Positions 28,275 to 52,347 of a stretch of DNA of 53,394 nucleotides are shown here, in pieces. Under the pieces are notes generated by a model. The model worked only from the letters and a program-made list of their open reading frames with translations. It ran no database searches and was not told the DNA's origin. This stretch comes from Bacteroidia bacterium (lineage in GTDB: Bacteria; Bacteroidota; Bacteroidia; SXHM01). Each line of letters opens with the position of its first letter. Within the stretch, counting starts at the first letter, position 1. The stretch lies in assembly GCA_020054035.1 (NCBI GenBank), contig JAGVLY010000049.1:1-53394 (forward strand). The letters run 5' to 3'. The translations under genes were made by a program, and so were the position numbers.

Positions 28275-31019
28275 TTACGCCTTTTTCGGTTCATACAGTT
28301 GAACTACGGCACATCCGCCCCAGCGGTTTTTTCCGTTATCATCGGCTGTGCTGGCTTTTCCGCGTTCCGGGAAGTTAATCAGTGTATCAACTTCGTTTCT
28401 CCATTCTTCAGAACCGCGATAATCCCCGTCCTTTTTACCTTGGCTAAGAACTATAAAGGATAGTTTCGGATGGTTCTTTTTCAAGCTACGGAATTGTTCA
28501 ATGTCTAATTTCAGGCTGTCTTTGCTGTCAAGAACAACAAAATCGTATTGAGCAAGATTGTGTCCTTTCAGGTCGGGAACTATTGAGAACTTATCGTTAC
28601 CTTTAATTCCTGCATCCATAATAAGCTGTTTAAAAACAGGTGTTCCGAAACTTTCACCGGCTACATATAATACAGGATGTCCTTTTTCACTAAGGTATTG
28701 ACTGAATGCCAAAGCCATCCCCGATTTACCGGACCCGCCTTTTCCATACATCAGGATATTCATAGGTTTGCAGGCTTCACCAATCAGCTCTTTCCATTTT
28801 CCCTCTAACCCGATTGGTGTGTGTTCCACTGCGAGAATATCGTCAATACTCATGGCAGAACCCAACTGAACTCCCCCGTGATGGCTGCCAGCTCCGCGAC
28901 CTTTTGCATCGGTGTATTTTTTATCTCCAGTCCTCCGCAACGATTTTTTGATGTCGTAAATTGTGCCTACTCCACTTACAACATGAAATCTACCACCCTT
29001 TTCGTTTTTGCGGTCAGATAAAAGTTGAAAATATACGTTACCATTTGACAGTTCTTTCACGCGAATAACCGTTCTCCCGTTTTGTAATACTGCCGATAAT
29101 AAATCATTTGCTTTAATATCACTTTCAATAAACTCTCCAGCATTCGGATAATACTCGGATAAATCAAACCGTTTTACCACAGCCCATACGAATTTCTCCT
29201 GGTCGCGAGGGCTTCTTCTGTTGCGCTCGTTTCTGTAATCTTCTTCTGTTTGCCATCCACCCGCACCAAGCGTAACTCCTCCGTGATGGCTGCCAGCTCC
29301 GCGCCCTTTAGCATCGGTGTATTTTCTGTCCTTGGTTTTACGCAGCGGCTTGTTGATGTCGTAAATCATTCCCAACGCAGAGTTGCAATCGCAACCAATA
29401 CCCGCCAACCCGTTCAGCTCTGCAATGGTTGGTTTAATATGATGCTCTTTGCCCGAAACATATTCTTTCATCCGTTTTACAGCCACTTCAAGAAAGTTAT
29501 AGTATTTATCTTTAGAAGAAATATCTTCATTGTCTTCATACTTTTTAATGCGTTTCAACAGAGCTTCGGCTTTCTCTTTCACATCTTTTTTACCAACCAA
29601 GCTGATATATTGCTTCAACAGTGTAACAATTAACATCTTTGTTTCACTGCCTATAATTTTTTGAAACTTCTCCAGTCTTGCTTCGCCAATGGTGATGGCA
29701 AACGTTTCTACGTTTTCATTTGCACGGGCAACCAAGAATGTTTGAATCTCCTTTATCTCCTCTGCATATTTATCGGCACTGCGGATAATCTTTTCGGTGA
29801 TGGCTTTTTGCAAGCTGCGGAGCAATGCCATTAACTTATCGTAACTCACCTGCTTTCCGCTCATAGCGGTAAAGCGTTTAATAAAATTTACTGCGGGGCT
29901 AATGTGTTCAACAGGCAAACCGCTGGACCCAACTTTCTTCGTTTTTTCAACACGGGGGCGTTTTGCTTTTTTCGCTTCCTTCTTCGCTTTTTCATAACCC
30001 TTTTCGATTGATTCGCTAACAGGGTCCTTTGCTTTTTTCTGTGGATTGTGTCCACTATTTTCAGGTTTGCGCGAAACAGGTTTTTCATCATGCAAATACA
30101 CATCATACAAGTCTGTTGTGTCGTTTACAAACTCAAGATGTTCAACCTTTACACCCTGTTCTTTAAATTTTTTCAGAATATATTTTTCATCATTTGCTGA
30201 CGAAGGAATAAAATAACCCCTTGCATCTTTTTTAATTGATTTAAAAACCGTCCTAAGTTCTTCCAACCTTTTATCGGTTGGCTCTTTTGGTTTCTGCCCT
30301 ACCTTCCACTCATTCAGCTTCTCAACTTGCCGCCTAACGGTGTTATCAATAACGGCATTGCCGCTACTCCATTTTGCACCTGAGTTAGTGGCACGGGTTA
30401 CAAAATCGTGTCCTTTTCTTAATGGTTCGGGTAATTCGCTTACTCCGATTTTTTCTACTTCTTTAAAGTAGTTGTCTGTGGTTATTGCTTTAGCAACTGC
30501 ACCTAAGTCATCATCTTCGCTTTGGTATTTATCAATACCATTTTTTGCTAAAAAATCTTCAATAATCTTGCGACCTGAATTTAATTTAGCAAATATCCCA
30601 TATTTCTTTTCATAGCTTTCGTTCAACTCCTCAATACTATCAAAGACTGCATCCCATGAAGAGTTAGTATGGTCAACCGATACATTCAAGTCCTCATATC
30701 TTTCTCCACTCCTTACCTCTTGAACATCTGTTACCTTATAAGCGTAATTCATATATGTAACGTGTTGGTATGTTACGATAATTGAACCTTTTGGAATTAG
30801 TGCCGAAACTTGATATTCGCTTTCTATAGGTTTGCCTGCACCATTTTTCCATAGCTGAACTTCGCAAGTTTTGCCATGCTCTTTATATTCTCCTTTTAAG
30901 AGTTTTTTATACTCAGCTTTTGCTTCTGCAAGTGTCTTATAATTGTGTTCAGTGGTGTCCGAATTTCCGTTATTACTATTGTAATTTTCAACTACTATTA
31001 TTTGATAATTTGATTTCAT
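28275..31019 (-). CDS. Large multidomain protein with C-terminal RecA/DnaB-like P-loop ATPase domain and an internally duplicated KYTDAKGRGAGSHHGGV motif
   Basis: 914 aa. Walker A is MYGKGGSGKSGMA, Walker B-like is FVVLDS, and SFIVLSQ follows. Two ~30-aa repeats are encoded by 91-nt DNA repeats at 28871-28961 and 29276-29366. The upstream part is lysine-rich and low in complexity. Copy 1 of the hairpin motif lies inside this gene. Confidence 0.8.
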   Translation of the reverse strand: MKSNYQIIVVENYNSNNGNSDTTEHNYKTLAEAKAEYKKLLKGEYKEHGKTCEVQLWKNGAGKPIESEYQVSALIPKGSIIVTYQHVTYMNYAYKVTDVQEVRSGERYEDLNVSVDHTNSSWDAVFDSIEELNESYEKKYGIFAKLNSGRKIIEDFLAKNGIDKYQSEDDDLGAVAKAITTDNYFKEVEKIGVSELPEPLRKGHDFVTRATNSGAKWSSGNAVIDNTVRRQVEKLNEWKVGQKPKEPTDKRLEELRTVFKSIKKDARGYFIPSSANDEKYILKKFKEQGVKVEHLEFVNDTTDLYDVYLHDEKPVSRKPENSGHNPQKKAKDPVSESIEKGYEKAKKEAKKAKRPRVEKTKKVGSSGLPVEHISPAVNFIKRFTAMSGKQVSYDKLMALLRSLQKAITEKIIRSADKYAEEIKEIQTFLVARANENVETFAITIGEARLEKFQKIIGSETKMLIVTLLKQYISLVGKKDVKEKAEALLKRIKKYEDNEDISSKDKYYNFLEVAVKRMKEYVSGKEHHIKPTIAELNGLAGIGCDCNSALGMIYDINKPLRKTKDRKYTDAKGRGAGSHHGGVTLGAGGWQTEEDYRNERNRRSPRDQEKFVWAVVKRFDLSEYYPNAGEFIESDIKANDLLSAVLQNGRTVIRVKELSNGNVYFQLLSDRKNEKGGRFHVVSGVGTIYDIKKSLRRTGDKKYTDAKGRGAGSHHGGVQLGSAMSIDDILAVEHTPIGLEGKWKELIGEACKPMNILMYGKGGSGKSGMALAFSQYLSEKGHPVLYVAGESFGTPVFKQLIMDAGIKGNDKFSIVPDLKGHNLAQYDFVVLDSKDSLKLDIEQFRSLKKNHPKLSFIVLSQGKKDGDYRGSEEWRNEVDTLINFPERGKASTADDNGKNRWGGCAVVQLYEPKKA
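30039..30061 (-). promoter_or_regulatory. Element-specific hairpin motif, copy 1 (inside the 914-aa CDS)
   Basis: Core GTGGATTGTGTCCAC at 30041-30055. The minus strand reads AAAATAGTGGACACAATCCACAG, translated in frame as ENSGHNPQ. Confidence 0.7.
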
Positions 31020-31055
31020 GGTTTTTATTTATTAAGTTTTTTATATTTTATTTTT

Positions 31056-34000
31056 TTATCCGTTCATGTTTGTAAATGAGAGCAGCTCTAACTCAATCAA
31101 AATGGCTTCCGCTTCTAACTCCAGCAGCTTGTCAGCATCATTAGTAACCGATTCTGGAACGGCTGCATGTTTCAGGTAAAGGCGCACAGGTTCGGGCTTA
31201 CGCATAGCCGGTGTTTTCTCCATCAGCATATCATAAATATTTTGGTGCAGGTGAACACTGGTGCTAAACTTTTCCTGAAAGAAGAAAACCATTGTTTCAA
31301 GGTTTTTGGTTTTAAACACGGCTTTCATTTTTCCGCTTACCATGTTAAAGTTATTGCCTTCCACTATTGCCAAAATATCAGCATCTAAATACACTTCACC
31401 GCCCTTTGCTTTGCTGCCGGGAACATACAGGCTGAATGTATCGTTGTAGTTTTTCTCAAACACGGCTCCTGAGTTGGTGGTTATTTCAAAACCCGATTCC
31501 AAATCTTTAAATACCGGAAGGGCTTTACTAATCGGAACTAATGTTCTGTCCTGCTTTTCTCCGGGCTTCCAGTTGTCGGGCATTAATATTCCTTTCTCTT
31601 CGCCACCGTCTTTAACTGAATAGCTGATTAGCTTTCCTTTGTAAGTTCCGTAGGCTTGCAGAATATTTCCTGAAATAATGTAGCGCACTTTGCGGCTTAT
31701 GCTGCTGGCTTTAATTATTTCCGTCCAGTTTTTTAGTATTTCTTCGCTTTGGCGGGTGTTTAACAAGGTGCTTGCGCCAATGATGGATTGAAGTGTTTTA
31801 GCTTGCTCACCACTTCCGGTAAGCGCAATATATTTGTTGCTATCGCTTAACGCAAACTTGAATTTTATTGCTGAAGGTGCAAAAGGATTAGGTCGTTTGC
31901 GGTCAATATGCACACCCACAAACACGGCTTTGGTCATGCTGGCTCCGGCATCATACTGAATAATCGGGTAATTGCAGCCTTTACCCGGAAAAAATGCAGT
32001 AAAGAAAGTAAGCAGCGATAGTGTTGTGTTCTCCGATTTTTTTATTGCGCTGTTTAATGAACCTACACGGGCTTCGTTCAGTTCGTCCTGCCTTTCAAAA
32101 ATAGCACGTTGTTGTTCAGCTTCACTTTTTATTGCTTTTATCCGTTTTTCATTCGGAACATTTTTTATTAACTCGGCATACTTATCTCCTATATCTTTCA
32201 AATCAGCATCTAACCTGCCTTTCATAAAACCTTTGTATTCATCAATAAACTTGCGCTGATAATCTTTTGGCTCTTTATCTTTCAGTTCATCCGCAATCAG
32301 TTTTTCTACTTCAGCTTTTGTGTAAGGCTTTTTCAACACATTCGCCATTACCTTTTTCATCAGCGTTGAAGTAGCAAATTCACTTCGCCCACCCTTGCCG
32401 TCAATCACTGTAATTTCTTCCAGCGTTTCGGCTTCAAGGTTCATGGTTTCCACCTCCAAATCATATTCGCCCATCTGCTTCAGATACTCAACATAATCGT
32501 TGTAGCGTTCTGTAATTTCATTGTAAAACGCTTCCTGCATTGCACAGGATAAAATTGCAACACGCCCCGAAACACGGTAGGCTGCATCTTCAGGAACTTC
32601 TTTTTCGCTTTTCTTTTCGTTTTCGGTTTCCAATAATTTAAGCGGGTCGCCAAGCAACAGATTTATTTCAGGGTTTTCCTGTAAATATTCCTTTACAATT
32701 TTATCACCGTATTTATTCAAAAAATCAGGAACAGACAACAGTGATGAACTTGATTTCTGATTGCTGGTAGTGTTTGCATCCAAACTTTTCAGCTTGCGCT
32801 GGAGCATCATCATTAACCGTTTTTCGGCAGGAATAGCAGAAGAAACATAATCATACTCAGGTAACAAAATCTGCCCGGTGCGGTTTATCCGTCCGCGCTT
32901 TTGCACTTCGCGGTTAATATCTAACTCTGCTTGCAAAACCACCATCACACGGGGCTTTACTTCTTCAGCAGAAACTTTGCGTGTAGGAATAGCATGTGCC
33001 GATGCACCCGTGCTTCCGCTTTGGTTAATCAATAATACATCGCATTCGTTGTTATTAAACATTCGGAACGCATCATTGGTGTTGGTGCGTGTGCGGCTAA
33101 GAACAACCGCCATCATGGTTTTTGTGTTTACCTGCAATTCCGTTTTTCTTCCGGTAACTTCAATAGGTCTGTAACCCGCATCTTTAATTTTTTGCATGAT
33201 TACGTCAATCGGACTAATACTTATTCCAGTTGAAACCTTTTCAATTTTATTCAGGATTTCAAAATACTTCTGCCCCGCTTCAGGACTTAGTTCGTGGATT
33301 TTAAGCATGTCATATTCCGGTTCGCCCTTCTCATTCTTTTTGGTGTAACGCAATACACCATCTAATCCGCGTTTCAGCACCAAAGCAAAATCTGCTTTAA
33401 TGGTTTCGCCTTCCGCAGCTCCCATGTCATCTAAAAAACTTTCCATTGTTGAGCCAAAAGCAATAACAGGCTTCTTGCCTTTTTTCAACCAAGTTATTGC
33501 TTTGTCTGCAACCGCTTCAGCTTTTATGCTGAACAACATCTGATTGATAACATTAAACACTTTTGAGAAGTAAGGCTGATTATCAACCCCTGCGTTTTGC
33601 GTTCCCTGCCTTTGCTCCACTTCGGCATATTCAGCAGCCGCAATTTTGTCCATTTCTTCAAACACGGGTTTAAGTTCCACACGCTGAAATGCGATAATGT
33701 CGCGGATAATCTCCGTTATTTTATCGGCAGTATCACGATGTTCTTTCCCTAAATCATCTAACGAAAGGTAGTTTACATTTATCCCTTCATAGGTGCGTTC
33801 CCTTCGCAACATTTGTCCTTCTTTTACCAATGCTGCGGATAAAATTTCCTGTAAAGCAACACCGCCTTTTTCAATACTTTCAATCAACGCACCGCTTGTT
33901 AGGTTGGCTTCTTTGATGGAAGTTTTCAAGGCATACACCGGCATATTGTCGGGGCGTTTGGCATAAGTGGCACTCAGGTAAACTGCGCCCTGTGCTTTTT

Positions 34001-34769
34001 TGGTGATACTTTGTATAAATTCACCTGTGTTGCTGCTTCCGCTGGCGTTGTGGGCTTCATCATAAATTAATAACCCGCTTTCTGAAATAGCAGAAATAAA
34101 TAAGGGTTTCAATGGTTTTTTCTCGGCACTGGATAGTTGAGAATAGGTGCAAACCACAAAATCATATTTACCGGGCAAACGCTTGTCTTTAAAAATTGCC
34201 TGTTGTTCGGTTGGCGGCAAAGCCTGGTAAACTACGTTTCCTTCTTCGTCCTTAATATCGGTTTTGCTGTCGCGCCCGTTTACAATAAACGGCACTAAAT
34301 CAGCAGAGCCGATTGCAACCAAATCACGATACAAGTCTGAAAACAGATTCGGTTTTTCGGTAAAGAAAACAGGGCGCAATTTTTCAATTACTCCGTAACG
34401 AATAATAGCGGCAGCTTGTCTGCCTTTTCCTATTCCGGTTTGGTCAGAAATAATCAAACCTTCTCCGTAGGCTTCTATATTATAGATAGCTACTGCAACA
34501 GCATCAATCTGTTCGGCAGCAAGGGCGCGACATAAATCAATGCGGCTTGCATATTGCAGGCGGTCAGCTACAAAGCCTACCACATCACCACCAATTAAAT
34601 CTTTAATTTTATTAATAGCTTCATGTGTTTCGTAGCCCATACTATCCGGCACATCCACTTCAAGGCTGTGGCAGCTTTCAGAAACAGGGATGTAAGGCAT
34701 TCCGAGCGTGGTATCGCTTACGGGTCTGCCCCAGTTGTCGTAGATGGTGATTTTTTTTGCGTGTTTCAT
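31056..34769 (-). CDS. Strawberry-notch (SBNO)-type DEAH-box superfamily 2 helicase, 1237 aa
   Basis: P-loop TGIGKGRQAAAII (GxGKGR is typical of SBNO), DEAH box LIYDEAHNASG, motif VI QKRGRINRTGQ. A long C-terminal extension of unknown function ends in LELEAEAILIELELLSF. Confidence 0.8.
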   Translation of the reverse strand: MKHAKKITIYDNWGRPVSDTTLGMPYIPVSESCHSLEVDVPDSMGYETHEAINKIKDLIGGDVVGFVADRLQYASRIDLCRALAAEQIDAVAVAIYNIEAYGEGLIISDQTGIGKGRQAAAIIRYGVIEKLRPVFFTEKPNLFSDLYRDLVAIGSADLVPFIVNGRDSKTDIKDEEGNVVYQALPPTEQQAIFKDKRLPGKYDFVVCTYSQLSSAEKKPLKPLFISAISESGLLIYDEAHNASGSSNTGEFIQSITKKAQGAVYLSATYAKRPDNMPVYALKTSIKEANLTSGALIESIEKGGVALQEILSAALVKEGQMLRRERTYEGINVNYLSLDDLGKEHRDTADKITEIIRDIIAFQRVELKPVFEEMDKIAAAEYAEVEQRQGTQNAGVDNQPYFSKVFNVINQMLFSIKAEAVADKAITWLKKGKKPVIAFGSTMESFLDDMGAAEGETIKADFALVLKRGLDGVLRYTKKNEKGEPEYDMLKIHELSPEAGQKYFEILNKIEKVSTGISISPIDVIMQKIKDAGYRPIEVTGRKTELQVNTKTMMAVVLSRTRTNTNDAFRMFNNNECDVLLINQSGSTGASAHAIPTRKVSAEEVKPRVMVVLQAELDINREVQKRGRINRTGQILLPEYDYVSSAIPAEKRLMMMLQRKLKSLDANTTSNQKSSSSLLSVPDFLNKYGDKIVKEYLQENPEINLLLGDPLKLLETENEKKSEKEVPEDAAYRVSGRVAILSCAMQEAFYNEITERYNDYVEYLKQMGEYDLEVETMNLEAETLEEITVIDGKGGRSEFATSTLMKKVMANVLKKPYTKAEVEKLIADELKDKEPKDYQRKFIDEYKGFMKGRLDADLKDIGDKYAELIKNVPNEKRIKAIKSEAEQQRAIFERQDELNEARVGSLNSAIKKSENTTLSLLTFFTAFFPGKGCNYPIIQYDAGASMTKAVFVGVHIDRKRPNPFAPSAIKFKFALSDSNKYIALTGSGEQAKTLQSIIGASTLLNTRQSEEILKNWTEIIKASSISRKVRYIISGNILQAYGTYKGKLISYSVKDGGEEKGILMPDNWKPGEKQDRTLVPISKALPVFKDLESGFEITTNSGAVFEKNYNDTFSLYVPGSKAKGGEVYLDADILAIVEGNNFNMVSGKMKAVFKTKNLETMVFFFQEKFSTSVHLHQNIYDMLMEKTPAMRKPEPVRLYLKHAAVPESVTNDADKLLELEAEAILIELELLSFTNMNG

Positions 34770-35279: not shown

Positions 35280-36827
35280 TTATAAAATACCAAACAGGTT
35301 TATATCTTTATAGCTATCGCTTTGTGCTATCTGGGCTTCAATCCAGTCATAATAAAACTTCTCTGCTTTCTTCACTTTAACAACCCTTATTGTAACTTTT
35401 ACAATATATTTTTCCTGATTAATAAAAACGTATTCGTTTAGAAAATTATAGTAGCCAAGAATGTCTGCCGCATCTGTCGGTTTTCGCTTACCAACCCCTG
35501 TGAATTTTGCCCGTTCTATTATATTGTCAATCTTTTTTAAAACAACTATGCTTTGATAGTTTGTTCTATTGGAATACAAAGAGTGTCGCAAACCGCTAAT
35601 GGTTAGAATTATTGGTATTGATTTCCAATAATTAAAAACAGGCTTCCCTTTATGGTGTTTTTTAAAATATTTGACAGCCTCTTCCTTTTGTTTTTTGTTT
35701 GTCAAATGCAACCATTTAGAATCTGTAATTTTAACCACCTCATTCTGAATATTCCCTAACCCAAAACTCAACAACTCCAACTCCACTGCCACAGCTTCCG
35801 CTTCCAATTCAAGTTGCAATGATTCAGCATCACCGGAAATAACAAATTTCGCAACCCTTTTATAGTAAGTTTCAAAATCGTGAATGGTTGCATCTTGTGT
35901 TTTGGAATAAAGCGGGGGATAACCACCGGGAACGGGTTTGCGCCCGTCAATTAAAATCACGCGAACATCAAAACTTGTTCCCATGCGGCTATACAATTTG
36001 CCGTCAATGTTCAGCACATCTAAAACGTTGTAATGTTTGTGCAGGTAACTAAAAAATAAGCGGTTTTTACCGGCTTGTATTCTGCCCTGTGCATCCCAGG
36101 TTGTGTTGCCGCCAATAATTATTGCAGCCCGCCCGCTATCCTTCATGGTGTCGAGTGCGCGGATGCTCATAAGGTGGTCGAGTTCGGTAATTTTAAAGCC
36201 GTCAAATGTTCTTGCTTCAGGCAACTTGCCAAAGGGCGGGTTGGTAATTACGGCATCAAAAATGGCATCATAATTTAAAAACTGTGTCCAGTCTTTTGTG
36301 CCGTCAAAGGCAAGAGTTTGATAATAATTTTGTTGATGAAGGTTGGCGTTTCGGACTTCATCAATATCATTTACGATAAAACTTTGTGTGTCGCTTGCAA
36401 TGGTTAGCATTCCGTTACCTGCCGATGGTTCAAAAAATCTACCCTCCAGTGGATTGTGTCCACTTTTATCAATACCGCAAAACACTCCCATCATATAAGC
36501 GATAGGTGCGGGGGTGCTGTATTGCTGCAATAACATACTGTGGCTGGTGCGGTGGCTAAGATTGCCCTGATAGCTGTATAACTCCACAATTTTATCAAAC
36601 CGTTCACGCACCGTTCCGGGATTATGCGCTAATTCACGGGCTAACTCCACTACCGCCAACTCCGCAAGTTCTTTAATCAGGTTTTGGTTGTTTATTTCAT
36701 AAGCCGCTGCCAATTTCTCCAACTGGTCTTTGCGTAAAGCATTTATTCGCTGTTTTCGCTCAATAGCCGATTGAAGCAACTCTTTTACGTTGCTTACAAA
36801 TTTTCCGTATGAGGGTTTGAAGGGCAT
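35280..36827 (-). CDS. N6-adenine DNA methyltransferase with an extra C-terminal domain of unknown function
   Basis: Motif I FEPSAGNGML and motif IV VITNPPFG. After the linker LQLELEAEAVAVELELLSF comes a ~170-aa basic C-terminal domain. Its start overlaps the upstream stop (TAATG). Copy 2 of the hairpin motif lies inside this gene. Confidence 0.85.
   Translation of the reverse strand: MPFKPSYGKFVSNVKELLQSAIERKQRINALRKDQLEKLAAAYEINNQNLIKELAELAVVELARELAHNPGTVRERFDKIVELYSYQGNLSHRTSHSMLLQQYSTPAPIAYMMGVFCGIDKSGHNPLEGRFFEPSAGNGMLTIASDTQSFIVNDIDEVRNANLHQQNYYQTLAFDGTKDWTQFLNYDAIFDAVITNPPFGKLPEARTFDGFKITELDHLMSIRALDTMKDSGRAAIIIGGNTTWDAQGRIQAGKNRLFFSYLHKHYNVLDVLNIDGKLYSRMGTSFDVRVILIDGRKPVPGGYPPLYSKTQDATIHDFETYYKRVAKFVISGDAESLQLELEAEAVAVELELLSFGLGNIQNEVVKITDSKWLHLTNKKQKEEAVKYFKKHHKGKPVFNYWKSIPIILTISGLRHSLYSNRTNYQSIVVLKKIDNIIERAKFTGVGKRKPTDAADILGYYNFLNEYVFINQEKYIVKVTIRVVKVKKAEKFYYDWIEAQIAQSDSYKDINLFGIL
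36447..36469 (-). promoter_or_regulatory. Element-specific hairpin motif, copy 2 (inside the methylase CDS)
   Basis: Core GTGGATTGTGTCCAC at 36449-36463. The minus strand reads ATAAAAGTGGACACAATCCACTG, translated in frame as DKSGHNPL. Confidence 0.7.
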
Positions 36828-41338: not shown

Positions 41339-41361
41339 TTGTGGATAGTGTCCACTATTTT
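41339..41361 (-). promoter_or_regulatory. Element-specific hairpin motif, copy 3 (gene junction)
   Basis: Core GTGGATAGTGTCCAC at 41341-41355, with one loop substitution. The minus strand reads AAAATAGTGGACACTATCCACAA. Its TAG is the stop codon of 41355..42092, and the motif ends 2 nt before the next ATG. Confidence 0.7.
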
Positions 41362-42092
41362 GGTTTGTTAAAAAATACCCGTTTCACACCCCAGCCGAAA
41401 AAAAAAAGTGCGCCAATGCCTGCGGCTGTTTTTCCGGGGTTGGCTTTTGCAGCATCTACCGCTTTGCCTGTTTCTTTAATTACTTCCTGTGCTACTTTCT
41501 TAATTCCTGAATAAGCATAGCTTTCAATTCGTGAAAGCCAGCCTTTCTCAAACTCAGGTTTGTTCAGGGATTTATAGTAATCCTTTCTCCATCTCTTTAT
41601 TTTCTCAAACAAGTCTGCTGGGTCCGCTGAATTGATAATTCCAATCTCACTTGCATCAATCGGTAAGGTTATTTTCTTGCCGGTTGTTTCGGTCAACATT
41701 CTACCAACCGTTCCGGGACTATGTTGAATGTTGGCATCGTAAATAATTTCGGCAATGCTTTGATCCGTGATGGTGTCGCCTTTTAATGGTAAATCCCAAA
41801 AAGCATTTTTAAAAATCTTTAAAGCAGTTTCATAAGGAAGTGCTTTCATTTCGGCTGCTGTTACTGGTCCGCCTTTCCATGCAGCAAGTGTAGGAGCTGC
41901 CACACCGAAGTTTGTTCCTACCAAAACAACACTACCGCCAATAGGTGAAATTGCTTTACCTGCTTTATCAAACTTAGCCCATGCGGTTTTATTACCGTTC
42001 ACAGCAAGCCAGTTTCCTAAATCTTTAGGATTAGCAGTATAGCCGCCTTCATACTGCTTTACTTTTGCCTGTGCTATTTTAAATTCTGCCAT
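41355..42092 (-). CDS. GH108-like N-acetylmuramidase (lysin) with C-terminal membrane anchor
   Basis: KQYEGGYTANPKD (EGGY catalytic motif of glycoside hydrolase family 108), GTNFGVAAPTLAAW, FWD and IIYDANIQHSPG follow the GH108 pattern, with an insertion after the EGGY region. The C-terminus GIGALFFFGWGV is hydrophobic. Confidence 0.7.
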   Translation of the reverse strand: MAEFKIAQAKVKQYEGGYTANPKDLGNWLAVNGNKTAWAKFDKAGKAISPIGGSVVLVGTNFGVAAPTLAAWKGGPVTAAEMKALPYETALKIFKNAFWDLPLKGDTITDQSIAEIIYDANIQHSPGTVGRMLTETTGKKITLPIDASEIGIINSADPADLFEKIKRWRKDYYKSLNKPEFEKGWLSRIESYAYSGIKKVAQEVIKETGKAVDAAKANPGKTAAGIGALFFFGWGVKRVFFNKPK

Positions 42093-45363: not shown

Positions 45364-45368
45364 GCTGT

Positions 45369-45785: not shown

Positions 45786-45810
45786 GGTTCATAATGTTTT
45801 GGATTAATCC

Positions 45811-46233
45811 TTATTTGTGTTGATAATCCGGTTCGTCCTTTTCATCATTGGACAAATCGAGATACACTTTCACCGTGTAAGCTCCGGTAATGACAAAGCC
45901 ACCACCATCAAGGTATTTGAATTTCAGCTTAGCACCATTAGCACGTTCGTTGATTTTGTATTTGCGACACATCGGTCCAACCGAAGTGGTGCTGAACAAT
46001 CTTTTCAATTCATAGCCGGCAGTAAGCACTTCCTGCGAATCAATGGTAAGCGGTGTGTCAAACGTTCCGCCTGTCAGTGAACGGGCATCATTTACTTCAA
46101 CACTTAACGATATTGTCCGTCTGAAATTGCGGTCAATCTCCTGGTCCATTGTAAAATCACCGCCCACAGCTCCACCGGCAGCAGTAATGTTGAATGAAAA
46201 AATCTGTTGGCGTAATTTTCTTAGCGTTGCCAT
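45811..46233 (-). CDS. Hypothetical beta-rich protein (140 aa), candidate small capsid/jelly-roll-like protein
   Basis: It follows the strong hairpin after the 259-aa gene. Beta-rich composition. The structural role is inferred only. Confidence 0.65.
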   Translation of the reverse strand: MATLRKLRQQIFSFNITAAGGAVGGDFTMDQEIDRNFRRTISLSVEVNDARSLTGGTFDTPLTIDSQEVLTAGYELKRLFSTTSVGPMCRKYKINERANGAKLKFKYLDGGGFVITGAYTVKVYLDLSNDEKDEPDYQHK

Positions 46234-46291
46234 GAATGTATTTTTGAATTAATTGTTCGGTTTTAAAATGGTTTTCGGTTTTAAAGGATGG

Positions 46292-46321
46292 GAAGTCCCC
46301 CGCATTGCTGCGGGGGACTTC
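46292..46321 (-). terminator. Very stable GC-rich hairpin after the 259-aa gene (terminator or attenuator, or RNA-stabilising element)
   Basis: Perfect 13-bp stem GAAGTCCCCCGCA/TGCGGGGGACTTC with loop TTGC. It starts 47 nt after the stop at 46368. The U-tract is clearer on the plus strand (CGTCCTTTTT) than on the gene strand. Confidence 0.55.
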
Positions 46322-46367
46322 GTCCTTTTTAATCAGACCGATAAGAACTGACTAAGCTTTTCCGATT

Positions 46368-47147
46368 TTAGTTCGGGTTAAGGCTGGTTCCAACAAAGCC
46401 CGCTTTGATAAACGGACGGATGTTACCACCACCTAACGGAATGCTTGCAGCTTGCTCAATCTCCAACTCAATCGCAACGTTCGGCTGAATGATAACCGGG
46501 TTATCAAAATAAACCAAGCCAAGGGCTACGTTTTGTTTGTTAGTTGTGTCAAAGTTCTGACCACCGTATTCTTTCAGGATTTCTTTGCTGTCATGGCGCA
46601 GAGTAACCTGTCCATTAATCACCGCACGGTGAGCAATACCAAAGGCAGCATCACCAACTCCGGCATTCAGCGTTTGTTCATATCCTGTTACGATTTGCAG
46701 TCCAAGTGCCAAGAATGGTTTATCGTTGTCAAGTTTTCCTTTGTCAACGTTACCAACTCCAACCGCTTTCTGGTCGCCCGATGTAAACATCTTAACCAAT
46801 CCCGCAGCTTGCAGTGCAAGTTTGGTTTGGAAGTAATACATGTCAACCATACGGATAGAGCCTTTCGCAAGTGCCTTACGGAACTCAGGAGGGAAAAATC
46901 CAAGACGGTTTAACAATTCAACACGGCTGTTCGGGTAAGCTGAAGCAGCTTGTCCTTTAACCGCACCCGCAGAAATCGCACGTTTGAATTTGTTGTATGC
47001 TCCGGTTTTGCCTGCTTTTGAGATGGCTCCAAGCAATGCCATTTGACCTTCGGGAGAAATCCCGCTAATCACGGCAGCCGCAACATCGTCCGGCATACCT
47101 TCTAATACTTCAGGAGAGATTTCTCCTATTCCTAATAATTGATCCAT
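46368..47147 (-). CDS. Hypothetical protein (259 aa), best candidate for a major virion protein
   Basis: No TM, with a beta-rich C-terminal two-thirds. It is followed by the strongest hairpin in the element, an arrangement I associate with highly expressed capsid genes. No sequence motif recognised. Confidence 0.7.
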   Translation of the reverse strand: MDQLLGIGEISPEVLEGMPDDVAAAVISGISPEGQMALLGAISKAGKTGAYNKFKRAISAGAVKGQAASAYPNSRVELLNRLGFFPPEFRKALAKGSIRMVDMYYFQTKLALQAAGLVKMFTSGDQKAVGVGNVDKGKLDNDKPFLALGLQIVTGYEQTLNAGVGDAAFGIAHRAVINGQVTLRHDSKEILKEYGGQNFDTTNKQNVALGLVYFDNPVIIQPNVAIELEIEQAASIPLGGGNIRPFIKAGFVGTSLNPN

Positions 47148-47288
47148 GATTTCTTAATTTTTATTTACTGTTAGTTTTTTTGTTTGTTTAATTTGCCAAG
47201 TCAACCTTTTTTAACTTTTTCATGCTGCCTGTTTTGTCAGCCGCAGATGGTTTTTAAAGCCCGTTAAATCCGGTTGTTTTTTTTGCAC

Positions 47289-47390
47289 CTAACATTTCCG
47301 ACACACATTAGCGTTGGAATTATCAGCTACGGACATGGTGCAATTCTTGTCCGTAGCACCCACACAGGTAGGCTTAACTATTTTTCTCAT
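47289..47390 (-). CDS. Possible 33-aa four-cysteine peptide, below the ORF-track cutoff
   Basis: My translation is MRKIVKPTCVGATDKNCTMSVADNSNANVCRKC. The ATG lies 23 nt after the upstream stop. The ORF contains a 10-bp-stem hairpin (47326-47357), so the region may be structural RNA or DNA rather than coding. Confidence 0.35.
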   Translation of the reverse strand: MRKIVKPTCVGATDKNCTMSVADNSNANVCRKC

Positions 47391-47413
47391 CGTGTTTATT
47401 TTTAAAAAAGTTT

Positions 47414-48190
47414 TTATGCGTAAACAACTTCTTCCTCTTCAGCAGAAGCAAGGCTTGCAGCATCTTTGAATGATTCGCGGCTCAACAACGCTTCGTTTTT
47501 TCCACCCCAGCGGTTGTTCCAGTTTACGTTTTCAAGTCTTCCAACTCCAGCGCCCGAAACCCAGCCCATACCTTCAACCCAGCCTAAACCGAGTGCAGCT
47601 TTTTCAGCAATTTCTCCGGTAGATGGTTTTTCGGCAAGTTCAGTTCCTTTGAAACCGGCATCACGGTCCGCAGCGGCTTTCAGGATAGCCAGTGATTTTG
47701 CAACTTCTTCTTTGCTTTCAGGTGTTTGTGTTGTTCCGTCAAATTCAGTTTCACCCAATGAAGGCAGATATTTCGTTGCTTTCGGGTATGCTTTTTTAAC
47801 TCCGCTTACAACGCCTGTAATCGCCAATCCGTAACCTGCAAACTCACCGATTTCACCCAACATTTTTTCAGTCTGGTCAGTGCTTTTTGCGTATTTGTTA
47901 CCGTAATAAGCGGCAGCTCCGCCAATACCAACCGAAACGATTGGAGCGGCAAGGGCTTTGAGGCTTTCTTTCCATGCACCGCCTTTCCATGCCAGTCCAT
48001 CAGCACCGACAGCAGCGGGTTTAAGAATTTTATCAGAAAGCATTGCTATTCCTTTTCCGGCAAAGCAGCCGAGAACGAAATACAGCGGGCGGGTTACTAC
48101 TTTTGGAACTTCGGAGTTTACAACACCGGCAAATCCGCTGAAGCCCGTGTTAGATTTTTTAACGCCTGTCCCTTTTTTTGCTTTGGTCAT
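47414..48190 (-). CDS. Gly/Ala-rich membrane protein (258 aa)
   Basis: Hydrophobic segments are PLYFVLGCFAGKGIAML, LAAPIVSVGIGGAAAYY and FAGYGLAITGVVSGV. The tail is acidic. Confidence 0.75.
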   Translation of the reverse strand: MTKAKKGTGVKKSNTGFSGFAGVVNSEVPKVVTRPLYFVLGCFAGKGIAMLSDKILKPAAVGADGLAWKGGAWKESLKALAAPIVSVGIGGAAAYYGNKYAKSTDQTEKMLGEIGEFAGYGLAITGVVSGVKKAYPKATKYLPSLGETEFDGTTQTPESKEEVAKSLAILKAAADRDAGFKGTELAEKPSTGEIAEKAALGLGWVEGMGWVSGAGVGRLENVNWNNRWGGKNEALLSRESFKDAASLASAEEEEVVYA

Positions 48191-48250
48191 TTTGGTTGGT
48201 GTTTTTTGTTTGTTAGTAATTGATTGTTTATTGATTGGTGATTATTGTTA

Positions 48251-48274
48251 CAGTGGATTGTGTCCACTTTTTAT
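48251..48274 (-). promoter_or_regulatory. Element-specific hairpin motif, copy 4 (gene junction)
   Basis: Core GTGGATTGTGTCCAC at 48253-48267. The minus strand reads ATAAAAAGTGGACACAATCCACTG. Its TAA is the stop codon of the 1046-aa gene, and the next start is 63 nt downstream. Confidence 0.7.
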
Positions 48275-51200
48275 GAAAATGTTACTGCTTTGATTTTTGC
48301 TTTTGTTTTCGCTTTAGCCCTTGGCTTTGCTGTTCCGCTTAATGCCGATTTAGGTTTTGCGGGTGTTGGTTGTTTTGGGTCAAATGCCATCTTTAATCCA
48401 TAGCCTACAAGCCCTGTAATAAATGCAGCTCCTGCTATTTTAGCTCCGGTGCTGCCAAACATTCCGGCTTCTTCCTGCGAGGCTTTCATTTTTACATCAT
48501 TCGCCTCAATCGCTTTTATCTCTTCAGGAGAAAAGAACTTATCAGGTGCTTCCGCGAATTGCTGAATATCACCGGGAATAAGGTCCTTGCCTGTTTTGTT
48601 TTTGTAAAGCTGATTTGCAGCCGAAACCAATCCGCCTGCGGTTTTCACGCCCTGCGCCACTTTTTCAATAGTGGATGGTTTACCTTCTTCTCCTGAATCA
48701 TCGTCAGCATCCGCACCCTCTTTTTTGGCTTTCTTTGATTTTTTAACTTTCTTAGGCTTGCTGGCTTTTTTCTGTTTTTTAGCTTCTTTATTCTTTGCAC
48801 GTTTCGCTTGCCGCTCCGCACGTCTTGCCGCTCTTGAGTCTTTCTCTCCTAATCCGTCAATGCTGGCTTCGTCAAAATCTTCGCCACTCATAACGGGGTC
48901 AATAGCGCAATCTAAAGCAGTGTCAATATAATTCTGAACACCCAGCAATCCCTTCATAGAATCGGCTACATCCAATGCGGCATCTGCCACATCTTTAACT
49001 GCGTTGGTTGTTGATTCTACTTTATCTTCTTCATCCGGTTCTTCACCTGGAGGAAGGTCGTTAGCACCGTTCTTTTTAAGAAGTTTTGAAAGTGCTGCAA
49101 TGATGGTAGCGGCTGCGGCTATGCTTGTTCCTATAATAGTATTAGGTTCGCCAAGTCCATAAAATTCCACAAATCCTAAACCTTTCAGAGCTTCAATTTC
49201 TTTAATTTTAGGGCTGTATGATTTTTTCTTTTTCCAGCCTTTTTGCAGAGCTTTTGCAAGTTTATCCCTTTTGCCACCTAAAACATCTTCCCAAATCTTA
49301 GCGAATTTGTCAGCGGCTTTTTTCTTTCTGTCCCAGAAATCACGCTTTAAGCCATATTTCTGCGCTTCTTCCCAGCTCATAAATCCGGGATAAAGTTTAA
49401 GAGCAAGTTTGAAGAAGTTAAGTTTTGAAGCCAACAGGAAACCGTTGCGGGCTGCAATCATCAGGGGGTTAAACTTCTGAGCGAACTTGAAAACCTTTTT
49501 AAGTCCCTTTCCTACTTTTTTCCAAAACTTACCTTTCTTTTTCTTTTTGCCATCAAGCCCGTCAATGGTGTTATCCGTATCATACGCACCATTGAGCGAA
49601 GTATCATCTTCATCGGCATCACCAAACGCACCGAGCTTACTCATGCGCTCTTCTTCTTTTTCAAGATGCTCAACTGCTTTTTCGCGCTTGTAAGGATTAT
49701 TCCAGTTTTTCAGGGCGAAATCGCACATCTCCACATGCCTTTTCGCTCCGCCATGATTAGCAACACTGCCGGGATATTTAGCAATATAGTTACGGGTTTT
49801 ACGGATGTGTTTTTTCATTCCGTTTAACCATTGCGCCTGAATTTCAACAGGCAAAGAAGAAAGTTCTACTTCATCGTTATGACCGTTCAGGATGCTGTCG
49901 GTTGCAATCCATGTAGGCTCAAAATCAATTCCGCAAAGAATGCCGTCCAGCACTTCTTCGGGTTTTTCTTCCAAGTCGCTTTCTTCGTTTGCTTCTTCAA
50001 CAATTTCAGCAGCTTCGGGGCTATCAGCAGCCATGCTTTCCGAAATTTCATCCACTCCCTGATTCACATCAGCATAACCTTCTTCGGCTACTTGCTCTTT
50101 GTCTTCTTCCGGTGCGTTGTTTACTTGTTCATCAACAACCTCCATTTGTTGCTCTGCCTGTTGTAAAGGCTCATCGTATTGCGTAGGGGCATCAGGAGCG
50201 GGAAGGTTTGCATATTCTTCCATGCCCGGTTGAACCGGATAAGATGAACCACCACTTCCACCCGAAGATGCTGCGGCTGCGGAAGCGGCTGCGGCTGGTG
50301 AAATAGGAAATACAGGTGTTGAGCTTGCTGAAGGTGTTGCAGCTTGTATAGCTGCCATTTTTTTGGCAACAATAATTTTTGGAGCGGCTTTTTTAAGCCT
50401 GCGTATTCTGCGCTTGGCAATACGTTTAGCTTTTTTGGCTTTGCGTTTTACAAAACGTTTTGTTTTTTTCTTTCTGCCAAGGTCGCCAAGCCCGTCTTCA
50501 TCGTCAAAAACTCCTTCCAGTTCCAGATCTTCTTCAACGCCATCCAATACATCTTCTGCATCATCAATGCCGTCTAAGTCTTCATCTGAAATTCCTGAAA
50601 TGCCTGAAAAGCGGGCTTCGGCTTTCGCCAACCTGCCTTCCAGCTTTTTGCGTTTTTCAGCACTCAGGTTTGAGTTTTCAAGAAGTTTGCGAAGAACGCC
50701 TGCACGGTGTTGTGCGGCTTTTTTCAAAAAACGTTTTTCGGGAAACCATTTTCCGATTTCACCTAATCCTGAAACATCTTCATTATCAGGACCCGAAAGA
50801 AGGGCAATAGGAATACCAGCTAATCCGTTCATTTGTGTAGGTTTTATATTGATGTCTAATTTTCCTGCGGGGTCAAAATCATCGTCAGGCCCGTAAGGTT
50901 TTTCGATATTGAAGCCATCCAGCACACAGTCAAGCACAAATTGTTTTTTGCGCTCTTTGTCTTTTACAACAATATACACATGCTGCCAGTCGGATTTGTA
51001 TTTGCTGATTCTCATGGTAAAAGGAATACCAAGGCAGGTAAGGATGCACCCGATACTAAGTGTATAGCAATCGCAATCCCCAAAACGGTCATTCCACAGG
51101 CGGGCGGGGGTGCGGAGCTGTTCCTGTCCGGGTTCGTCATTCTGATACTGAACGTGATTATAGTAGAACGCCCAAATAGTGCGGAGCAATTCCGTCATAT

Positions 51201-51411
51201 CTTCACCTTTCTTCCAGCCGGTTGTTTCTTTCATCAGTTTGGCAATCTTTTCAGTTTGCCAACTGTATTTGTTGATGATGTTCGCCATCTCTTTGATGGT
51301 GAGCTTCAGGTTTCCGTCTTTGTGAAGGATGGAATCCTTTTCATCGGCTTTCGGAAAGTATTTATCAAACTCTTTCCCCGGTTGTAATTTGCGCTGATAC
51401 TTGGCTACCAT
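48271..51411 (-). CDS. 1046-aa multidomain protein: N-terminal transglutaminase-like cysteine protease core, alternating poly-basic and poly-acidic low-complexity tracts, TM segments
   Basis: RFGDCDCYTLSIGCILTCLGIPFTMRI...WQHVYIVV...FVLDCVLD fits the Cys-His-Asp transglutaminase-like core. Basic tracts are GRKKKTKRFVKRKAKKAKRIAKRRIRRLKK, GKKKKKGKFWKK and RAARRAERQAKRAKNKEAKKQKKASKPKKVKKSKKAKK. Acidic tracts lie between them. Hydrophobic segments are IIGTSIAAAATIIAAL and AKIAGAAFITGLVGYGL. Confidence 0.8.
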   Translation of the reverse strand: MVAKYQRKLQPGKEFDKYFPKADEKDSILHKDGNLKLTIKEMANIINKYSWQTEKIAKLMKETTGWKKGEDMTELLRTIWAFYYNHVQYQNDEPGQEQLRTPARLWNDRFGDCDCYTLSIGCILTCLGIPFTMRISKYKSDWQHVYIVVKDKERKKQFVLDCVLDGFNIEKPYGPDDDFDPAGKLDINIKPTQMNGLAGIPIALLSGPDNEDVSGLGEIGKWFPEKRFLKKAAQHRAGVLRKLLENSNLSAEKRKKLEGRLAKAEARFSGISGISDEDLDGIDDAEDVLDGVEEDLELEGVFDDEDGLGDLGRKKKTKRFVKRKAKKAKRIAKRRIRRLKKAAPKIIVAKKMAAIQAATPSASSTPVFPISPAAAASAAAASSGGSGGSSYPVQPGMEEYANLPAPDAPTQYDEPLQQAEQQMEVVDEQVNNAPEEDKEQVAEEGYADVNQGVDEISESMAADSPEAAEIVEEANEESDLEEKPEEVLDGILCGIDFEPTWIATDSILNGHNDEVELSSLPVEIQAQWLNGMKKHIRKTRNYIAKYPGSVANHGGAKRHVEMCDFALKNWNNPYKREKAVEHLEKEEERMSKLGAFGDADEDDTSLNGAYDTDNTIDGLDGKKKKKGKFWKKVGKGLKKVFKFAQKFNPLMIAARNGFLLASKLNFFKLALKLYPGFMSWEEAQKYGLKRDFWDRKKKAADKFAKIWEDVLGGKRDKLAKALQKGWKKKKSYSPKIKEIEALKGLGFVEFYGLGEPNTIIGTSIAAAATIIAALSKLLKKNGANDLPPGEEPDEEDKVESTTNAVKDVADAALDVADSMKGLLGVQNYIDTALDCAIDPVMSGEDFDEASIDGLGEKDSRAARRAERQAKRAKNKEAKKQKKASKPKKVKKSKKAKKEGADADDDSGEEGKPSTIEKVAQGVKTAGGLVSAANQLYKNKTGKDLIPGDIQQFAEAPDKFFSPEEIKAIEANDVKMKASQEEAGMFGSTGAKIAGAAFITGLVGYGLKMAFDPKQPTPAKPKSALSGTAKPRAKAKTKAKIKAVTFS

Positions 51412-51414
51412 GTT

Positions 51415-51930
51415 TTAGATTTTATAGTCAAGTGTTACAGGAAAGTCGATTCCGTAGGCGTGAATAGCCAAATCAACATTTATAGCCCGGTTTGCCGGTT
51501 GGCTTCCGAGTAATCGTGCGGTAAAATATTGTGCAGCATCTTTTATGGATGCGCCCAGCTTTTCAATGTTTACATTAAACTTTAAGGTAAGCGGATATTC
51601 GCTGGCATTGGCGGTAAGTGTGTGTTCCAGTGTGCTGGCTTCGCTGATGGCAACTGCGGCAGAGCGGTAAGAAACTTTTGCAAGCGGGTGTTGAAAACTT
51701 AAAGCTGTTCCTGTGGTGTTGGTGAGTTTGGCGGTAACTTCAAGCGGAAGAAAGGTTTCCATCTTCTTCTTGTCAACATTGTAACTGTTGAAGGGAACGC
51801 CAACTTTTATTTTTCCGGGTGCAACTACCAAGGCTTTTGCAGCCACAGCCATATCGTAAAGCTCTTTACCGATGAAGAAAGCTCCTACACCAATAGTTCC
51901 GATAAGTAAGTTGCGGGCTGCGGTTCTCAA
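51415..51930 (-). CDS. Membrane-anchored beta-rich protein (171 aa)
   Basis: N-terminal TM LLIGTIGVGAFFIG followed by a beta-rich domain. TTG start in the track; the true start is uncertain. Confidence 0.65.
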   Translation of the reverse strand: MRTAARNLLIGTIGVGAFFIGKELYDMAVAAKALVVAPGKIKVGVPFNSYNVDKKKMETFLPLEVTAKLTNTTGTALSFQHPLAKVSYRSAAVAISEASTLEHTLTANASEYPLTLKFNVNIEKLGASIKDAAQYFTARLLGSQPANRAINVDLAIHAYGIDFPVTLDYKI

Positions 51931-51989
51931 TTTGCTGTTTTTGTTTGTAAAACAGCCGCAAGGTAGAACGGGTAAAAAGAAGAAAACCT

Positions 51990-52114
51990 GCTTAACTACC
52001 TTAAAGTAGCTTAAAGTAGCTTAACAGGTGTATTAAAGATGTTAAAGCATATACTAAAGCTCTTAAAGTAGCTTAAAGCGTGTTAAAGTTGCTTAACAAT
52101 GTATTGTTAAATAG
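51990..52114. repeat. Iteron-like cluster of TTAAAG / GCTTAA(C) short repeats
   Basis: Seven exact TTAAAG plus one CTAAAG lie within about 90 bp (52001-52087). GTAGCTTAA occurs three times and GCTTAAC three times (51990, 52019, 52091). The cluster is intergenic, between the Zn-ribbon ORF and the 171-aa gene. Confidence 0.8.
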
Positions 52115-52134
52115 GAAAAGAGGTAAAAAGGGGG

Positions 52135-52290
52135 CTATTTTTCGGGAAGGTGTCGGGTAAAACCTGTTTTCACGGAAGCGGATAGATTAAGTTCTTTGTT
52201 ACAGTTTTTGCATACCATTTCATTGTGCATTTCTTTCTTTGTTTTGGGTTTCAGGCATACTTGGCAGGTGATTGTTTTTTTGCGGGGCAT
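52135..52290 (-). CDS. Small Zn-ribbon protein (51 aa), below the ORF-track cutoff
   Basis: My translation is MPRKKTITCQVCLKPKTKKEMHNEMVCKNCNKELNLSASVKTGFTRHLPEK, with two CxxC pairs 14 residues apart and a basic composition. The overlapping plus-strand track ORF 52196..52639 looks spurious. Confidence 0.55.
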   Translation of the reverse strand: MPRKKTITCQVCLKPKTKKEMHNEMVCKNCNKELNLSASVKTGFTRHLPEK

Positions 52291-52323
52291 TTTTATCGGT
52301 TTGCTGCCGCTAATTTATAGTTT

Positions 52324-52347
52324 TAGTGGATTGTGTCCACTATTTTA
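52324..52347 (-). promoter_or_regulatory. Element-specific hairpin motif, copy 5 (gene junction)
   Basis: Core GTGGATTGTGTCCAC at 52326-52340. The minus strand reads TAAAATAGTGGACACAATCCACTA. Its TAG is the stop codon of the ACP gene. Confidence 0.7.

Follow-up and report, generated by a model that had tools for sequence, protein, structure and literature searches.

Described systems and the element under study

Gene regulation over long distances by ParB-family clamps, which depend on cytidine triphosphate (CTP), was shown only recently, for KorB (2025; PMC11790492) and for BisD (2025; PMC12409273). The DNA described here is a stretch of 53,394 nucleotides (nt) from a Bacteroidia bacterium (contig JAGVLY010000049.1, assembly GCA_020054035.1), referred to as the window. 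It contains a prophage-like element that is integrated and is cut off by the window end. An inverted repeat of 15 bases, GTGGATWGTGTCCAC, is dispersed through this element and through a few metagenomic relatives. It is tentatively suggested that the repeat is a site at which a ParB-type clamp is loaded.

BisD of the element ICEclc loads at odd-length palindromes that have a central n and lie inside genes, and it spreads over 50 kb (PMC12409273). The spreading is biased along element transcription, and BisD controls element promoters (PMC12409273). ICEclc, like the sister elements of the window element, is an integrated mobile element with a gene for a ParB-like CTP clamp that carries an additional C-terminal domain. 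The bisS sites also resemble the motif in being odd-length palindromes with a free central base and in their intragenic placement (PMC12409273). However, ICEclc has two sites of 23 base pairs (bp), 2 kb apart and fully symmetric, whereas here there are at least 8–10 sites of 15–17 bp that are asymmetric and co-oriented. ICEclc also has a second factor, BisC, that marks 11 promoters; no BisC-like motif, ParA or conjugation genes were seen in the window family.

KorB of RK2 binds OB sites such as TTTAGCGGCTAAA (PMC11790492). As a ParB-family CTPase, it exerts global regulation from multiple short palindromes that are dispersed, a layout comparable to that of the motif (PMC11790492). OB is a palindrome of 13 bp with a central C or G, and it has the same 6+1+6 layout as TGGACA(C/G)TGTCCA, the form of the motif in the distant relatives L025 and L027. 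There are 12 OB sites in the 60 kb of RK2, and this density of about one per 5 kb is also that of the motif. OB differs from the window motif in being symmetric and in being classed by promoter distance. In addition, a partner protein, KorA, locks the clamp, and RK2 is a plasmid rather than an integrated prophage.

SopB of phage N15 binds IR1-4, GTGCGACCnnGGTCGCAC (PMC7205306). Here a temperate phage has several separate palindromes that are bound by a ParB-family protein, and their GTG...CAC frame is similar to that of the motif. N15 differs in being a linear plasmid prophage that needs partition, has SopA and has symmetric sites, whereas the window element is integrated by a tRNA-Arg gene and no ParA was seen. 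The centromere sites of N15 are said to have been described as dispersed by Ravin and Lane in 1999.

Two other types of site are comparable in layout. The stoperators of L5 and other Cluster A phages are non-palindromic, 13 bp long and recognised by a repressor that is a monomer with two domains, and there are more than 20 per L5 genome (PMC9283540). Like the motif, they are dispersed in the prophage, have an orientation correlated with transcription, lie mostly in short intergenic spaces and have lineage-specific variants (PMC9283540). Unlike them, the motif is an inverted repeat, and no two-domain repressor was found in the element. The L5 genome is about 52 kb. In the lambda nut sites, boxB is a hairpin of 15 nt in which a 5-bp stem carries a pentaloop; nutR lies directly after the cro stop, and the boxB sequence evolves together with a phage protein. 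A lambdoid phage genome contains two nut sites, both paired with boxA and located just past an early promoter. In contrast, the motif has 8–10 copies, some of them intragenic, with no boxA-like partner and no N-like protein identified.

The motif shares its site architecture and, through the sister elements, an encoded protein family with bisS/BisD, OB/KorB, the N15 IR/SopB sites and NBS/Noc. Its oriented, dispersed intergenic layout is shared with the stoperators. It is not a demonstrated member of any of these systems.

Copies of the motif in the window

There are five exact matches to GTGGATWGTGTCCAC in the window, at 30041, 36449, 41341, 48253 and 52326. Four of these read GTGGACACAATCCAC and the copy at 41341 is a loop variant. 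All five lie within the integrated element. All are on the plus strand, so they are co-oriented with the genes of the element, which from 28275 to the window end are without exception on the minus strand. The five copies are listed below in gene-strand form.

c1 (site E), 30039..30061, minus strand: AAAATA-GTGGACACAATCCAC-AG, inside the gene for an ATPase of 914 amino acids (aa) (28275-31019)
c2 (site D), 36447..36469, minus strand: ATAAAA-GTGGACACAATCCAC-TG, inside the gene for a 515-aa polyvalent/methylase protein (35280-36827), codons 122-126
c3 (site C), 41339..41361, minus strand: AAAATA-GTGGACACTATCCAC-AA, overlapping the TAG stop of the GH108 lysin gene, with the next ATG 2 nt downstream
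c4 (site B), 48251..48274, minus strand: ATAAAAA-GTGGACACAATCCAC-TG, beginning 3 nt past the TAA stop of a 1046-aa gene, with the next ATG 62 nt on
c5 (site A), 52324..52346, minus strand: AAAATA-GTGGACACAATCCAC-TA, overlapping the TAG stop of an acyl carrier protein (ACP) gene, with a 51-aa Zn-ribbon open reading frame (ORF) 35 nt on

The expected number of chance copies in the window element is 0.01. No match was found in 100 dinucleotide shuffles. With up to three mismatches allowed, no extra copy appeared anywhere in the window, and the 26-kb host half had none. Copies in the window-type elements are 1.9–7.3 kb apart. Each window copy has the core GTGGA-N5-TCCAC, which extends to AGTGGA...TCCACT in three of the five, and the centres of the two arms are 10 bp apart, or one helical turn. 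At c5 the first G of the core is the G of the ACP stop codon (52342-52340). The two intragenic copies are read in one frame, which chance alone would give with a probability of 1/3. Copy c1 codes for ENSGHNPQ in a low-complexity linker of the ATPase, and c2 codes for DKSGHNPLE just ahead of FFEPSAGNG (methylase motif I).

The original prediction, made from the window alone, had described five co-oriented copies that were specific to the element, three of them at gene junctions, the third ending 2 nt ahead of an ATG, and two coding for SGHNP in the same frame. All of this was borne out. Its flank consensus was only partly so. An A-rich 5' flank is indeed present (AAAATAG, ATAAAAG, AAAATAG, TAAAAAG and AAAATAG, or approximately W-W-A-A-W-A-G), but A(A/T)AAA(A/T)AG is slightly too strict, and on the 3' side conservation is confined to the first base past the core, W. 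The gene-strand form is best given as WWAAWA-GTGGACAC(A/T)ATCCAC-W.

An avoidance of GTGGAC outside the motif was also considered and was dropped. Under a Markov model the host part has 1 occurrence against 3.7 expected and the element has 5 against 5.8, neither of which is significant.

The motif in related elements

Protein searches returned a handful of metagenomic contigs as relatives. The element family is rare and is seen only in metagenomes. Neither a megablast of the element against 50,697 phage records nor a tblastn of its conserved 259-aa protein against phages gave a match, and protein-guided scans of IMG/VR and of 185,579 GTDB genomes found no relative. A scan of JGI metagenomes gave two short contigs only. 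When IMG/VR was scanned for AGTGGACACWATCCAC and AGTGGACACTGTCCA, there were 18 and 21 single matches at chance level, and the sole interesting one was in the prophage L053.

The sister elements (L019/L030 and L031) have 72–98% identity for most shared proteins, although a few modules are diverged or swapped. For the shared genes at the cut end of the window, L030/L031 have 86–98% protein identity. The core is identical at the orthologous sites A to D, and there are two extra upstream copies. F1 immediately follows the stop codon of a 175-aa gene, and F2 that of a gene similar to the C-terminal domain (CTD) of the RNA polymerase alpha subunit. The orthologous sites found in relatives are as follows.

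Site A: L019 2412; L021 2263
Site B: L019 6458; L024 696; L029 2069; L021 6512 (decayed)
Site C: L019 13717; L021 13687
Site D: L019 20990; L021 20548; same codon position as in the window

At site D the nucleotide sequence is kept at one codon in three elements, though the linker just downstream cannot be aligned. L021 is more distant, with 50–84% identity for most shared proteins and two near 30–39%. Its motif is GTGGACACCGTCCAC twice and GTGGACACCATCCAC once, with one decayed copy. L024 and L029 each have one variant, at site B. The most distant relatives, L025/L026 and L027/L028, have about 40% identity in the best-conserved protein. The sites in L025 and L027 are perfect palindromes, TGGACA(C/G)TGTCCA, of 13–15 bp, with either central base. 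L027 has seven copies in 9.9 kb, mostly intragenic and without flank conservation.

The arms GTGGA and TCCAC are unchanged throughout the family, down to about 40% protein identity, and there are no compensatory substitutions. The five central bases vary by lineage, with little variation inside any one genome: they are CACAA in the window and L019/L030, CACCG or CACCA in L021, and CACTG or CAGTG in L025 and L027. All seven independent window-type copies have the same asymmetric centre (with the loop variant at c3), the A-rich 5' flank and the same orientation. The five intergenic sites of the window-type elements start 0–4 nt past the upstream stop, in gaps of 16–80 nt. No conserved second element was found within 60 nt downstream of the motif. 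A palindrome-enrichment script identified the motif as the single outstanding inverted repeat in every family member. In the host half and in 40 control stretches (396 kb, phage lambda included), no palindrome of 5+5 bases had more than three dispersed copies.

Copies from the window and its relatives together fall in all three reading frames. The presence of the motif in the other two frames in relatives implies that selection is at the nucleotide rather than the protein level. This had been proposed from the shared frame in the window, and it is the relatives that give the better evidence for it. The repeats are too short to be homogenised by gene conversion, so the concerted change of their centres implies that they are selected by a trans-acting factor which reads their sequence and co-evolves with them. 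Invariant arms with concerted centres thus point to a co-evolving, sequence-specific protein as the probable reader, and not to a generic hairpin.

The lysin upstream of site C differs in its catalytic domain, which is GH108 in the window (41355-42092) and SLT in L019 (12950-13717) and L021 (12915-13682). The final 49 residues of the lysin, with the motif copy that follows, have been retained in both the window and L019; in L021 their conservation is weak (39% identity). A swap of the lysin domain immediately ahead of the motif is indicated.

A ParB-type protein and its possible sites

The motif is quite possibly the cognate loading site of a CTP-dependent DNA clamp of the ParB family (ParB/KorB/Noc/BisD-like) that is encoded by the element. 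L030/L031 encode a genuine CTPase of the ParB/KorB/Noc type, 631 aa long, in which ParB_N and HTH_ParB domains and the CTP box GERRYKA are present. Its PDB matches include ParB, Noc and KorB; for the L030 protein the match to KorB (2.6e-14) is weaker than the match to chromosomal ParB/Noc (1e-22). Among the element proteins scanned, from about 45 kb, its HTH_ParB is the sole clearly recognised sequence-specific domain for binding double-stranded DNA. The other candidate DNA binders there are a weak DnaA_C-type helix-turn-helix (HTH), the alpha-CTD-like protein and the Zn-ribbon protein. The last of these had been named earlier as a binder to test, and the ParB-family HTH protein of the sister elements is the better candidate. 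Two of the roles listed in the original prediction, an operator for an element regulator and a parS-like site, are where the evidence points most strongly.

The location of F1 is consistent with this. In L030 the neighbours of parB are a SET-domain gene and the 175-aa gene, which encodes a coiled-coil protein, and F1 lies at the end of the parB/175-aa gene pair. A parS site classically lies in such a position. A canonical intrinsic terminator with a 10-bp GC stem and UUUUU (L030 3581-3640) follows within 1 nt of F1.

ParB-family proteins bind palindromes of 13–23 bp. At the motif, a dimer would read the invariant arms GTGGA and TCCAC through its two HTH domains. Binding of CTP would then shut the clamp, and the clamp would slide onto the flanking DNA. 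From about 8–10 loading sites, 2–7 kb apart over an element of about 50 kb, the whole element could be coated. By comparison with KorB (PMC11790492) and BisD (PMC12409273), the purpose would likely be element-wide control of transcription, by silencing or by activation at a distance. Organisation or positioning of the element's DNA could be an alternative or an added purpose. The 631-aa protein may bind the motif sites, and synteny with the sister elements suggests that the truncated element of the window encodes parB as well.

There are a number of observations that weigh against such a clamp. Nothing directly ties the 631-aa protein to the motif. In the window element parB would lie beyond the window end, which stops about 8 kb short of the expected gene, and the contigs L021, L025 and L027 are too short to show a ParB gene. 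Searches of L030 1-20351 and of the window revealed no ParA-like gene. The orientation-indifferent, symmetric site that is expected of ParB proteins occurs only in L025/L027. All seven independent window-type copies, and both imperfect L027 copies, keep the perfect half 5' on the coding strand, for which a symmetric dimer gives no account. The 5' flank WAAWAG is conserved even inside genes, and the anchoring of the five intergenic sites to stop codons (0–4 nt) is left unaccounted for. The orientation bias, though not this anchoring, may be due in part to purine loading of the coding strand. A clustered array of TTAAGCTACTTTAAG direct repeats (window 51991-52096) is an alternative centromere-like candidate. 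Finally, two of five complete genomes of ParB-encoding phages (Maja and Bbif-1) and one unverified record (Efs 1-1-1) are without dispersed palindromes. Strict co-orientation, the A-rich 5' flank and stop-codon anchoring are not explained by a clamp, and for this reason an RNA hairpin and a stoperator-like site are still to be considered.

Two side observations concern L030. A 51-aa ORF that was called there would begin in the loop of the terminator next to F1, and its start is probably miscalled. The gene at 5192-5422 encodes a free-standing protein of 76 aa that has a Pfam match (E = 2.6e-16) to the C-terminal domain of RNA polymerase subunit alpha, and F2 starts at the stop of this gene. 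This protein may be a transcription decoy or adaptor.

Palindromes in isolated phages with ParB homologues

Among isolated phages, the nearest ParB homologues are encoded by Acidovorax phage Aval and by Variovorax phage VarioGold, at 32% identity over 290 aa. Aval (L034) has five dispersed copies of the 16-bp sequence GTGCACACGTGTGCAC, and VarioGold (L035) has six 16-bp sites similar to GTGCAGACGTCTGCAC. In each phage, parB contains one copy and another immediately follows the capsid gene. The half-site of these palindromes, GTGSASAC, resembles GTGGACAC. The paper on VarioGold makes no mention of dispersed palindromes. A third ParB-encoding phage, Desulfofustis phage LS06-2018-MD01 (L060), has six copies of GTCCCAAnTTGGGAC. 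Dispersed palindromes of 15–16 bp in 5–6 copies are present in three of five genomes of isolated ParB-encoding phages and in none of the 40 control stretches. This hints that several unrelated temperate phages with large ParB-like proteins carry 5–6 dispersed cognate palindromes.

We know of no phage example of a ParB clamp that regulates genes at long range. If the motif does load a clamp, it would add a case from a Bacteroidota prophage with many sites and not one or two, and with an unusual layout that is oriented and anchored to stop codons. The pair is compact and can be tested, as it consists of one protein and one 15-bp site. The mobile elements in which it occurs form a family with structural genes that cannot be matched to any known phage family. 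The observation itself is real and strongly non-random. The element family is uncharacterised, and any function for the motif rests on inference.

Alternative roles of the motif

When transcribed, the motif would form a small stem-loop after stop codons, which could be bound by an RNA-binding protein or nuclease of the element. This is conceivable but doubtful. Possible roles are transcript processing, 3'-end protection, translational coupling and boxB-like antitermination, and if any of these were true, the motif would be a new operon-punctuation element. An RNA hairpin accounts for the co-orientation and for the stop anchoring at all five intergenic sites, as well as for variation only at the inner, loop-proximal positions of the 3' arm. 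For the window copies, the predicted stems have 5–7 bp, the loop has 5 nt and the energies are -5.9 to -8.1 kcal/mol. Over the whole set of predicted hairpins, energies range from -5.9 to -10.5 kcal/mol and z-scores fall as low as -5.9, which is stable for so small a structure. A 5-bp stem with a 5-nt loop is the geometry of lambda boxB. However, the stems have no compensatory substitutions in elements that have diverged to 40–50% protein identity, and the L027 copies are mostly intragenic, without conserved flanks. Intragenic copies in long, essential-looking genes would be cleaved or blocked. A search of the whole window with Rfam 15 gave no family for the motif at the gathering score, with tRNA-Arg as the sole match, and the element proteins scanned include no recognised RNA-binding protein or nuclease. 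The hairpin proposed originally thus stands as a predicted structure, but its emphasis is weakened by the invariant arms and by the distant copies, which are perfect palindromes.

A role like that of a stoperator is rather unlikely. Here, an element repressor that is not a ParB would bind the oriented sites and block elongating RNA polymerase in an orientation-dependent way, as the L5 repressor does. The sites are asymmetric, oriented with transcription, dispersed and mainly in short intergenic spaces, as are those described for Cluster A (PMC9283540). The element is an integrated prophage with its genes co-oriented (except for the integrase), and its lineage-specific variants recall the variation among Cluster A immunity groups. 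An identical palindrome in L053, an unrelated low-GC prophage, looks like an operator pair around a promoter-like site. There, at 2995-3058 (IMG/VR UViG 2912874417_000002), two copies of AGTGGACA(G/C)TGTCCAC flank the promoter-like site TTGGCA...TGTTATAAT, downstream of a recombinase gene. Against this role, sites of the L5 type are non-palindromic and bound by a monomer, whereas the arms of the motif are a strict inverted repeat. There is no repressor-like gene and no copy over a recognisable promoter in the element, the early region of which is only partly seen. With about one site per 5 kb, the motif is also sparser than the sites of L5 (more than 20 per genome).

A combination of these ideas, judged about as unlikely, is that the motif is an oriented loading or roadblock site for a ParB-type CTP clamp, or for an unknown partner, and punctuates a single co-directional prophage transcription unit of 50 kb. 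If so, clamps loaded at stop codons would stop or license RNA polymerase block by block. This would be a clamp-based counterpart of the mycobacteriophage stoperators and a new means of prophage immunity or of late-gene timing. On this view, there would be a widespread, undescribed phage ParB regulon, with the palindromes of Aval, VarioGold and the Desulfofustis phage as its symmetric form.

Other sites that act at the DNA level are improbable. These could be a strand-specific nick as in T5-like phages, a boundary for recombination or module exchange, or a signal for replication or priming. Every copy is on one strand, and some copies are located where the gene content of relatives differs: the lysin swap by site C, the additional 99-aa gene that L019 has upstream of site A, and the variable linker after site D. 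But most of the differences in gene content between L030 and L031 are without a flanking motif, and no nickase, HUH protein or recombinase was recognised besides the integrase. The perfect palindrome of L025/L027 would not be expected for a strand-specific nick.

It is slightly less probable still that the motif is an element-specific promoter, either a DNA hairpin of the N4 type or a long consensus of the T7 type, that is read at module boundaries by a phage polymerase or a sigma-like factor. The motif is about 22 nt long, conserved, co-oriented and found at such boundaries, and three sites are followed by 30–60 nt of extra untranslated sequence. The Bacteroidetes -7 box, TAnnTTTG, is absent from the intergenic gaps of the visible 25 kb of the element (28275-53394); its three occurrences on the gene strand are all intragenic. 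The L021 variant, with a 6-bp stem and a 3-nt loop, is as in N4 promoters. This role had been among those proposed, and the evidence goes against it. In the roughly 45 kb of element sequence covered (the element is incompletely seen), there was no gene for an RNA polymerase or sigma factor, and no downstream element is conserved. F1 would fire directly into the strong terminator that lies within 1 nt of it, and c3 ends 2 nt ahead of an ATG. In L027 the copies are mostly deep in genes and have either central base.

Antisense termination is very improbable. On the plus strand, the hairpin and a T-rich tract would stop transcripts that enter against the gene direction, for example from the integrase/host side, where the integrase and the adjacent host genes are on the plus strand. 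A terminator scan lists c3, c4 and c5 on that strand, and all seven independent copies have at least five T in the 8 nt past the hairpin. The T tract, however, largely mirrors the A-rich coding strand, and the intragenic palindromes of L027 have none. The stems are short and weak compared with the real terminator-type hairpins of these elements (a 13-bp GC stem at 46292-46321 and the 10-bp GC stem of L030). A shared sequence is not needed for termination, but every copy in every relative has identical arms.

Two other roles fit poorly. A sense intrinsic terminator, which had already been rejected, is at odds with a stem of only 5–6 bp and no T tract after the motif on the gene strand, and the element has separate long, GC-rich hairpins of the terminator type. 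A generic host repeat of the repetitive extragenic palindromic (REP) or bacterial interspersed mosaic element (BIME) type, which was raised earlier as the finding that would count against an element-specific motif, is disfavoured by the absence of copies from the 26-kb host part, even with three mismatches, and by the motif following the element into unrelated metagenomes.

Other features of the element and its host

The left half of the window is Bacteroidota chromosome, with genes for PKD/CHU_C cargo proteins of type IX secretion, an ATP-binding cassette (ABC) transporter and PrmA. Two features mark the junction with the element.

26493-26567: tRNA-Arg(ACG), beside which the element is integrated
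26732-27904, plus strand: tyrosine integrase of the Bacteroidota type, in the opposite direction to every other element gene

The far end of the element, with any att repeats there, is outside the window. Genes of the element include polyvalent-protein modules (Strawberry-notch helicase, LPD3/methylase and ATPase), the GH108 lysin, a spanin-like protein, glycan-modifying enzymes, ACP and a DnaJ-like protein. When all element proteins were searched with Pfam and PHROGs, many, including most of the structural ones, were without a match. An AlphaFold2 model of the conserved 259-aa protein had a predicted local distance difference test (pLDDT) score of 55, too low for a fold search. A PDB sequence search with the 1046-aa protein gave no match.

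Some of the cargo (window 52340-53014; L019 15856-20626) is odd for a prophage. This applies to the acyl carrier protein and the DnaJ-like protein, and also to a SET-domain protein and to a fragment similar to PolX that the sister element has. There is variation in the glycan-modifying genes, with DUF6734 and an FkbM methyltransferase in the window and GT2, an epimerase/methyltransferase and GT25 in L019/L021.

A GC-rich hairpin of 13 bp, GAAGTCCCCCGCA...TGCGGGGGACTTC, is found at 46292-46321 of the window, 3' of the gene for the best-conserved 259-aa protein. In the distant L025/L027, a motif copy and TTTTTT occupy the position of this hairpin. At 51991-52096 (minus strand), four to five direct repeats of TTAAGCTACTTTAAG fill a non-coding gap of 204 nt, upstream of a 171-aa gene that opens a conserved structural block. 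The repeats are kept in three elements (window, L019 2656-2742 and L021 2397-2486) and could be iterons, a pac site or activator sites.

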